Origin: a virus | Taxonomy: Duplodnaviria; Heunggongvirae; Uroviricota; Caudoviricetes | Length of the DNA: 32,803 bases | Strand: one strand, 5' to 3' | Virus record (IMG/VR): IMGVR_UViG_2617270990_000007 | Shown: positions 7,523-8,550 of the stretch, piece after piece | How the letters are laid out: the number at the start of each line of letters is the position of its first letter | Position numbering within the stretch: position 1 is the first letter of the stretch | The notes under the pieces: model-generated | What the model saw: only the letters and a program-made list of their open reading frames with translations | Database searches by the model: none | Told to the model about the DNA's origin: nothing | Position numbers and translations under genes: made by a program

Positions 7523-8056
7523 ATGAACGTAAAAATCAGATACAGCCTGTCGGCCGCTGTTCTGGCACTGATTGCCGCCAGTGCTCCTGCCCCTGACATT
7601 CTCGATCAGTTTCTGGATGAAAAAGAGGGGAATCACACCACTGCATACCGCGATGGCTCCGGCATATGGACCATCTGTCGGGGAGCAACGATGGTGGACG
7701 GTAAACCTGTTATTCCGGGAATGAAACTGTCGAAGGAAAAATGCGCCCAGGTTAACGCCATTGAGCGGGATAAGGCGCTGGCATGGGTGGAGCGCAATAT
7801 AAAAGTTCCACTGACCGAGCCACAGAAAGCCGGTATCGCGTCATTCTGTCCCTATAACATTGGCCCTGGTAAGTGTTTTCCGTCGACGTTTTATAAGCGG
7901 CTTAATGCCGGTGATCGTAAAGGCGCATGCGAGGCGATTCGCTGGTGGATAAAGGACGGTGGACGTGATTGCCGCATTCGTTCAAATAATTGTTACGGTC
8001 AGGTTATTCGGCGTGACCAGGAGAGTGCATTAACCTGCTGGGGGATAGAACAGTGA
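7523..8056 (+). CDS. endolysin, T4-lysozyme-like with N-terminal signal/SAR sequence
   Basis: 177 aa; hydrophobic N-terminus; catalytic signature E-x8-D-x5-T (E…[14 protein letters not shown]). Confidence 0.85.
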
Positions 8057-8550
8057 ATCAGATATTCACGGTGATTTTGCTCGTGTTGGTAGGATTTGTC
8101 GTAGGTAATGTCTGGAGCGACAGAGGATGGCAAAAAAAATGGGCGGAGCGTGATGCTGCCGAATTATCTCAAGAGGTAAATGTCCAATTTGCTGCTCGAA
8201 TAATTGAACAGGGGCGAACTATATCCCGTGATGAGGCTGTTAAAGATGCACAACAGAAAGCCGCTGAAATTTCTGCCAGGGCTGCTGATCTGTCTGATAG
8301 TGTTAACCAGCTGCGTGCCGAAGCAACAAAATATGCCATACGCCTTGACGCAGCGCAGCATACCGCAAATCTTGCCGCTGCCGTCAGAGGCAAAACAACC
8401 AAAGCCGCCGAAGGAATGCTCACCAACATGCTCGGAGATATTGCAGCAGAAGCTCAGCTTTATGCTGAAATTGCTGACAAACGCTACATCGCAGGAGTGA
8501 CTTGTCAACGGATTTATGAATCTTTAAGAGATAAAAAATATCAGATGTAG
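8053..8550 (+). CDS. i-spanin (Rz-like)
   Basis: 165 aa, N-terminal TM helix then Ala/Gln-rich coiled region; start overlaps endolysin stop. Confidence 0.75.
8246..8500 (+). CDS. o-spanin (Rz1-like lipoprotein) embedded in the +1 frame of Rz
   Basis: Internal [26 protein letters not shown]… with lipobox LTSC and Pro-rich mature part, wholly inside the Rz gene. Confidence 0.55.

Follow-up and report, generated by a model that had tools for sequence, protein, structure and literature searches.

Two predicted two-component spanin pairs with different overlap architectures in Qin-type and P2-like prophage lysis cassettes

The 32,803-nucleotide viral DNA analysed here, which we call the window over its whole length, carries two pairs of overlapping genes that almost certainly encode the two-component spanins of two independent prophage lysis cassettes. 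In both pairs the predicted i-spanin has an N-terminal transmembrane domain and a largely helical periplasmic domain, and the o-spanin has, by a rule-based scan, a lipobox Cys that is not followed by Asp at +2. The two genes of each pair are embedded or overlapped, and a holin gene and a PF00959 lysozyme gene lie immediately upstream. A preliminary description of this DNA had proposed two spanin pairs of different architecture, and the family assignments bear this out: DUF2514/phrog_312 and phrog_11621 for the first pair, phrog_214 and PF23793/phrog_456 for the second. The observation holds and is not new, K-12 having pair 1 among its annotated genes and Pfam having a named family for the o-spanin of pair 2.

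An embedded pair in a Qin-type lysis cassette

Judged from its sequence relatives, pair 1 consists of rzpQ and rzoQ from a lambdoid prophage of the Qin type and belongs to the N15 gp55 family. The rzpQ-like gene (8053..8550, plus strand) encodes i-spanin 1, 165 aa from a GTG start, and the rzoQ-like gene (8246..8500, plus strand) encodes o-spanin 1, 84 aa from an ATG start. The preliminary description had the second gene fully embedded in the first, read in the +1 frame; both the ORFs and the frame hold, (8246-8053) mod 3 being 1. About 70% of embedded spanins span from 0.4-0.5 to 0.9-1.0 of the i-spanin length (PMC6139136), and the embedded gene comes near this range with 0.39-0.90.

The N-terminal transmembrane helix of i-spanin 1 is predicted at residues 4-22 (KD19 maximum 2.34) and is followed by a helical periplasmic domain with a single Cys, residue 151. 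A single-sequence AF2 model of low confidence (pLDDT 65) has helices at residues 4-21, 24-56, 59-110 and 117-163. The PF10721 DUF2514 profile matches i-spanin 1 with 132.5 bits (cutoff 26), residues 4-159 lying on profile positions 4-160/161, and phrog_312, named ‘Rz-like spanin’, matches with E 3e-58. O-spanin 1 is assigned by its identity to RzoQ and by a match to phrog_11621, also ‘Rz-like spanin’ (E 2e-8). In the rule-based scan its N-terminus is basic and is followed by a hydrophobic core and the lipobox LTSC, with Cys23 and Val at +2; LTSC matches the strict consensus [LVI][ASTVI][GAS]C (PMC6139136). The mature part is Pro-rich and contains two Cys residues (CSPTC).

The first gene of cassette 1 encodes an essQ-like class II holin of the phage 21 S-type, 71 aa long with an MKSM dual-start motif (6430..6645, plus strand; PF04971 Phage_holin_2_1, 115.7 bits; phrog_9876/phrog_20) and identical to K-12 EssQ at 63 of 71 aa. 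Between it and the lysozyme gene lies a gene of the DUF1327/YdfR family (6650..7201, plus strand; PF07041, 143 bits; phrog_2091), at the position that ydfR occupies in K-12 Qin; its mechanical ORF runs from TTG 6629, and the profile match begins at Met8. The rrrQ-like endolysin, a lysozyme (7523..8056, plus strand; PF00959, 86 bits; phrog_7), shares 165 of 177 aa with K-12 RrrQ. Its N-terminal segment is Ala/Leu-rich and weakly hydrophobic, and the enzyme may be of the signal-anchor-release (SAR) type. The lysozyme stop codon overlaps the start of i-spanin 1 (GTGA). A Q antiterminator gene is found upstream of the cassette at 2895..3287, and a scan for promoters and terminators around cassette 1 gave background level only. 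Over bases 7400..9350 the window has 99.8% identity to many E. coli chromosomes, whose annotations name the genes rrrQ, rzpQ, cspI and ynfQ/ymcF. Of 5426 complete E. coli genomes, 4041 have a match to the region of the Qin-type cassette and 2103 cover at least 80% of it. The earlier term ‘lambdoid cassette’ therefore suits the context, with its Q antiterminator and Qin-type genes, but does not extend to the sequence family of lambda Rz/Rz1, pair 1 belonging to the N15 gp55 family instead.

An overlapped pair in a P2-like lysis cassette

I-spanin 2 (27114..27488, plus strand) is a 124-aa protein with an ATG start that matches phrog_214, ‘Rz-like spanin’, with E 9.5e-18. No Pfam family matched it above threshold, DUF2570 reaching 14.6 bits against a cutoff of 26.6, and among the NCBIfam models no spanin model matched any of the four spanin proteins. 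Its hydrophobic N-terminal helix is weaker than that of pair 1 (KD19 maximum 0.98 at residues 1-19). A single-sequence AF2 model, again of low confidence (pLDDT 67), shows a helix at residues 2-86 and then a non-helical tail with one Cys, residue 90. The protein is conserved in eight IMG/VR loci at 59-100% identity.

As the preliminary description stated, the o-spanin gene of pair 2 overlaps only the 3' end of the i-spanin gene, and it does so in the +1 frame. The ORF had been given as 27370..27660; it exists, but its GTG start at 27370 is probably 3 nt too early, because PGAP starts the homologue in a 96%-identical E. coli prophage at the equivalent of ATG 27373 and because this ATG sits 7 nt 3' of a GAGGGG Shine-Dalgarno sequence. 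We thus take the start to be, probably, ATG 27373, which gives a LysC-family protein of 95 aa (27373..27660, plus strand) whose gene shares 116 nt with that of i-spanin 2 (119 nt from GTG 27370). At its own 3' end the o-spanin 2 gene overlaps the start of gpR.

O-spanin 2 matches PF23793 LysC with 50.8 bits (cutoff 27; P2 LysC itself scores 64.9 bits) and phrog_456 with E 1e-20, and these two are the families of P2 LysC too. Its homologue in E. coli ES1 is annotated ‘lysC: Rz1-like lysis system protein LysC’. The rule-based scan shows a basic N-terminus ahead of a hydrophobic core, then the lipobox VMGC with Cys17 and Ser at +2, the signal reading MIRVPVLLLLLLSVMG directly before the Cys; there is one further Cys in the protein. 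VMGC fits the relaxed lipobox pattern only, as Met at -2 departs from the strict consensus. Each of the eight relatives of pair 2 carries either VMGC or LMGC, and several non-consensus o-spanin lipoboxes were reported in the curated spanin survey (PMC6139136). The earlier statement that both o-spanins have lipoboxes accordingly holds by rule-based scan and homology, for LTSC at Cys23 and, in the relaxed sense, for VMGC at Cys17.

Cassette 2 is preceded by a tail/baseplate gene of the P2 gpX type (26098..26304, plus strand; PF05489 Phage_tail_X, 77.5 bits). A putative holin of 98 aa follows at the position of P2 gene Y (26295..26591, plus strand; phrog_1350 holin, E 1e-15; no Pfam match), and next to it is a lysozyme of 182 aa, endolysin 2 (26569..27117, plus strand; PF00959, 71.5 bits; phrog_7). 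The hydrophobic N-terminal segment of endolysin 2, residues 5-23, suggests an enzyme of SAR or signal type; PGAP starts its homologue in the 96% relative six codons further in, and the homologue in E. coli ES1 is annotated ‘lysozyme’. Its stop codon overlaps the start of i-spanin 2 (ATGA). The cassette thus lies between X and R, where P2 carries Y-K-lysA-lysB-lysC, and no lysA equivalent was found in it.

The surrounding prophage carries genes for an integrase, a repressor-like HTH protein, Cox, a Dam-type methyltransferase and gpA, and further for portal, terminase, scaffold, a P2-family capsid protein, gpL, gpX, gpR, gpS and gpV/W/J/I. Calling the cassette P2-like, as was done earlier, is justified by gene order, architecture and the LysC-family o-spanin, but a relation of the i-spanin to P2 LysB was not detected. 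This P2-like phage type is uncommon: 4 of the 5426 complete E. coli genomes carry the cassette, and deposited phages reach 44% identity at most. A scan of 185,579 species representatives with i-spanin 2 returned one locus, from Kluyvera sp., which shows rarity and little else.

The out-of-frame ORFs exceed chance

Overlapping frames in GC-balanced DNA sometimes yield long ORFs, and one could argue that the two small out-of-frame ORFs arose in this way and that only the rzpQ-like and the 124-aa ORFs code for proteins. For the 84-aa ORF, such a reading could point to the lack of any matching Pfam or NCBIfam model and to PGAP leaving the ORF unannotated in near-identical E. coli genomes. We consider it extremely improbable on the following grounds.

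Synonymous codons of each i-spanin gene were permuted so that the i-spanin protein was kept, and each shuffled sequence was searched on the same strand for a lipoprotein-like ORF that is out of frame and 60 aa or longer. Such an ORF appeared in 17 of 5000 shuffles for pair 1 (0.3%) and in 43 of 5000 for pair 2 (0.9%). When the rule-based lipoprotein detector was run on both strands of the window, it returned eight ORFs, two of which are the o-spanin ORFs; the six others, which a chance explanation could also cite, include a single real gene, that of the lipocalin. Both out-of-frame lipoprotein ORFs exceed chance.

Conservation argues in the same direction. Nine diverged DUF2514 loci, drawn via tblastn against deposited phages and having 69-31% i-spanin identity, were compared (N15, Salmonella SW-37, Klebsiella, Kosakonia, Skarpretter, Sortsne, Lumpael, Bas97 and Pectobacterium Taid); a scan of viral contigs with RzpQ gave only 99%-identical loci, which are uninformative on conservation. 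A +1-frame lipoprotein ORF is present at an equal relative position in 9/9 of the diverged loci and is nested in eight, the one non-nested case being SW-37, where the i-spanin frame itself is broken. PLPSEAKQ-like and C-x-P-x-C motifs are conserved among these relatives of pair 1. For pair 2, 8/8 IMG/VR relatives (59-100% identity) retain the overlapping lipoprotein ORF, and both the lipobox and the Cys are conserved among them. ORF, frame, position and lipobox are thus retained in the relatives of both pairs.

Comparison with K-12 over the shared 252 nt gave 6 synonymous and 4 non-synonymous changed codons in the rzoQ frame, three of the four non-synonymous changes falling in the N-terminal region of the signal peptide, as against 2 synonymous and 7 non-synonymous in the rzpQ frame. 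From these counts the rzoQ frame is the more constrained of the two. This synonymous bias of the embedded frame, the profile matches to spanin PHROGs and to Pfam LysC, and the annotation of the genes in both K-12 and ES1 all speak against chance.

Origin of the two pairs in one window

The Qin-type lambdoid prophage occupies ~1300..9350 and the P2-like prophage ~9350..31490. Qin-type homology ends at ~9344-9350, just past ynfQ, a point at which other strains have ynfR, ynfN and gnsB, or terminase genes, and the P2-type integrase gene begins 80 nt beyond this end. The stop of Qin homology and the integrase gene 80 nt on lead us to place the P2-like element inside the lambdoid prophage. None of the 5426 complete E. 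coli genomes spans the junction between the two. The two spanin layouts thus occur together because a P2-like prophage is nested in, or adjacent to, a lambdoid one after ynfQ, and the difference in layout reflects separate ancestry (N15 gp55/Qin family and P2 LysC family), not an interaction between the cassettes.

It might be supposed that the co-occurrence is functional and that the two systems cooperate or cross-complement, for example through mixed i-/o-spanin pairs, as the pairs are ~19 kb apart on the same strand and the lysozymes of both cassettes appear to have N-terminal hydrophobic segments. The subunits, however, come from unrelated sequence families, and in lambda the binding of i- and o-spanin depends on matched C-termini. 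The Qin-type cassette is widespread whereas the P2-like cassette is found in so few genomes, and the junction in no complete one, that the co-occurrence is better understood as a rare insertion event. We therefore give functional cooperation hardly any credence and retain separate ancestry as the explanation.

Proposed function and state of the prophages

By analogy with work on lambda Rz/Rz1 (PMC6139136), both pairs may act as follows. The i-spanin would be a type II inner-membrane protein, anchored by its N-terminal transmembrane helix with the helical domain in the periplasm, and the o-spanin a small lipoprotein cleaved and lipidated at the lipobox Cys. Lol would then sort the o-spanin to the outer membrane because its +2 residue is not Asp. 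The C-termini of the two subunits are expected to bind each other across the periplasm, and the subunits may form disulfide-linked dimers. Periplasmic Cys residues are present in both pairs, as they are in 507 of 528 curated spanin pairs (PMC6139136). After holin and lysozyme had removed the peptidoglycan, collapse of the spanin complexes would complete lysis by disrupting the inner and outer membrane or fusing the two. The lambda model is thus the basis on which we propose, for both pairs, that the o-spanin is lipidated and sorted and that the two subunits form complexes and fuse the membranes.

Both prophages look defective within the window, being truncated or interrupted, and one possible interpretation is that the spanin genes are real but inert relics whose intactness reflects only recent acquisition. 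The lambdoid segment has an IS at its border (~1301) and is interrupted at ~9350 by the P2-like element, another IS copy cuts the P2-type tail-fibre gene after ~115 codons, and the K-12 counterpart of cassette 1 belongs to a cryptic prophage, Qin. Against this, the eight lysis ORFs in the two cassettes are each unbroken, with plausible ribosome-binding sites, Q antiterminator and holin genes lie upstream, and the Qin-type cassette region is as widely distributed in complete E. coli genomes as described above; moreover, a prophage may continue past the IS copies, outside the window. Inert relics are thus a possible but rather unlikely description of the two cassettes, and we keep to their reading as spanin pairs of two lysis cassettes.

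Significance

The window offers side-by-side examples of two overlapping-gene spanin architectures that have been described since 2007 and were catalogued in 2018, and its importance beyond annotation is small. Since PGAP still misses the embedded gene of rzoQ type in E. coli genomes that are nearly identical here, windows of this kind are useful test cases for overlapping-gene callers. Only two points are mildly non-trivial: the LysC-family o-spanin accompanied by a non-LysB i-spanin, and the rare P2-like insertion in a Qin-type prophage. The former, an o-spanin of the LysC family with an i-spanin not detectably related to LysB, adds slightly to what is known of how spanin modules evolve.

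The non-helical tail of i-spanin 2, residues 87-124, is the part encoded by the DNA shared with lysC. We tentatively suggest, as a speculation that is on balance doubtful, that the body of i-spanin 2 was exchanged or diverged beyond recognition and the overlapping LysC-family o-spanin was retained. If this were true, spanin evolution would have had a recombination joint where i-spanin 2 and lysC overlap. A separate point is that a P2-like phage in a Qin-type prophage, at a junction that the 5426 complete E. coli genomes lack, would give one cell two unrelated spanin systems.

Comparison with known systems

The closest counterpart of pair 1 is in the K-12 cryptic prophage Qin, which shares the order essQ, ydfR, rrrQ, rzpQ with embedded rzoQ, cspI and ynfQ. 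The K-12 genes rzpQ (b1553, 498 nt) and rzoQ (b4689, 255 nt, ‘putative lipoprotein RzoQ’) are equal in length to those of pair 1, and rzoQ lies in MG1655 rzpQ at identical offsets, starting 193 nt into that gene and stopping 50 nt short of its end. RzpQ is identical to i-spanin 1 at 149 of 165 aa and RzoQ to o-spanin 1 at 80 of 84. The two regions differ by ~7% nucleotide divergence; the DUF1327 gene of the window is longer and is followed by an 86-aa antisense ORF; and K-12 has ynfR, ynfN and gnsB downstream, whereas the window has the P2-like prophage from ~9350.

Phage N15 has the same type of pair in gp55 and its embedded ORF, with DUF2514, phrog_312, phrog_11621 and the embedded +1 architecture in common. 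The o-spanins are 63% identical (E 2e-24) and have the PLPSEAKQ and CSPTC motifs in common; the i-spanins are 59% identical by tblastn over residues 21-164 and ~51% over the longer full length. The N-terminus of gp55 is longer than that of i-spanin 1, and the signal peptide of the N15 o-spanin is shorter. N15 is an embedded-architecture ‘singleton’ in the spanin survey of Kongari et al. 2018 (PMC6139136), and with this curated set pair 1 agrees in its embedded span and both pairs in their periplasmic Cys.

With lambda Rz/Rz1, pair 1 shares the architecture class (o-spanin fully embedded, +1 frame), the topology signals and the position after the endolysin gene, and the mechanism is presumed to be shared as well. 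Membership of the same sequence family was rejected, as BLASTP gave E 1.4 and 1.0 and neither PF03245 nor PF06085 matched pair 1: lambda Rz/Rz1 belong to PF03245/PF06085 and phrog_13/3198, whereas pair 1 belongs to DUF2514/none and phrog_312/11621. The lambda holin and endolysin are of the S/R type, whereas those of cassette 1 are of the phage 21 type.

Pair 2 resembles P2 LysB/LysC in that the o-spanin gene, read in the +1 frame, overlaps the 3' end of the i-spanin gene and extends into gene R. The P2 order X-Y-K-lysA-lysB-lysC-R-S has its likeness in cassette 2, with X, holin, lysozyme, spanins, R and S. P2 LysC and o-spanin 2 have PF23793 and phrog_456 in common and the lipobox G-C is invariant in their alignment, but their identity is ~24% and BLASTP finds nothing significant. 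No homology of i-spanin 2 to P2 LysB was detected, BLASTP returning no alignment and the PHROG assignments differing (phrog_214 and, for LysB, phrog_89); LysB gives a weak 22-bit match to phrog_214, and hhalign of a seven-sequence i-spanin 2 alignment against LysB gave 0.4% probability, a weak negative given how shallow the alignment is (Neff 1.5). Direct homology of the two pairs to the lambda and P2 prototypes was therefore dropped on the BLASTP results, except for LysC at the profile level. Embedded (lambda), overlapped (P2) and separated (T4) genes are the canonical spanin architectures (PMC6139136); pair 1 has the first of these layouts and pair 2 the second.

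A nested prophage between two insertion-sequence copies

Both ends of the window (1..1301 and 31489..32803) were found to be direct copies of one IS3-family insertion sequence, the first and the last 1286 bases matching each other at 100% identity. The element encodes orfA (108 aa, HTH_Tnp_1) and orfB (296 aa, rve), and its terminal inverted repeats were located at 1267-1301 and 31489-31523. With a copy at each end, the window represents a 30.2-kb segment flanked by one and the same IS; either this arrangement is a genuine composite structure, or the contig may end in repeats.

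Within the segment, ynfQ of the Qin-type prophage is directly followed by the start of the P2-like prophage (9344..9431), so that one prophage lies within another. Among 5426 complete E. coli genomes, not one spans this junction, and only 4 contain the lysis region of the P2-like prophage. At the other end, the right-hand IS copy cuts the P2-type tail-fibre gene (H equivalent, 31154..31501), the match of which covers only the first ~115 residues of profiles of 560-860 residues. The fibre, sheath, tube and late-control genes of the P2-like prophage are absent within the window.

Cargo and methyltransferase genes

The P2-like prophage carries two cargo genes on the minus strand (16565..19345), which occupy the usual P2 variable region, between gene A (replication) and the portal gene. 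One encodes a KAP-family P-loop NTPase that matches the PADLOC candidate defence family PDC-S20 with 250 bits, the matches to PifA and QatA being weaker; the other encodes a YaaC-like protein, for which no match was obtained in PADLOC or PHROG. The early region contains a D12-class (Dam-type) N6-adenine DNA methyltransferase gene (11934..12998) that matches "orphan methyltransferase" models.

Non-phage cargo is found in the lambdoid segment as well. The stretch 3443..6239, which separates the Q antiterminator (2895..3287) from the holin, encodes a Blc-type lipocalin lipoprotein (3443..3967, minus strand), a YbgA-family protein with 2-thiouracil desulfurase and DUF1722 (4160..5119), and an AraC-type regulator (5517..6239). 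A terminator-like hairpin (6308..6329) is located just upstream of the holin gene.

Lysis genes

In the spanin pair of the P2-like prophage (27114..27660), the o-spanin belongs to the LysC family, whereas the i-spanin falls in phrog_214 and P2 LysB in phrog_89, with no detectable similarity between these two. Residues 87-124 of this i-spanin are predicted to form a non-helical tail, which would correspond to the DNA shared with lysC.

In the lambdoid cassette, the gap between holin and lysozyme holds two insertions, a DUF1327/YdfR-family ORF (within 6629..7409) followed by an 86-aa antisense ORF (7149..7409, minus strand) with a full-length match to phrog_2572, a family of unknown function. 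The DUF1327/YdfR-family ORF is 183-190 aa long in the window, compared with 103 aa in E. coli K-12, and its counterpart in strain Ecol_316 is a truncated pseudogene.

The homologue of 8053..8550, the rzpQ-like i-spanin gene, was identified at 3654..4151 of locus L001 (NZ_CP018957.1). In near-identical E. coli genomes annotated by PGAP, rzpQ is included and the embedded rzoQ is left out, although the MG1655 annotation includes rzoQ (b4689); embedded o-spanins thus seem to be missed systematically in annotation.
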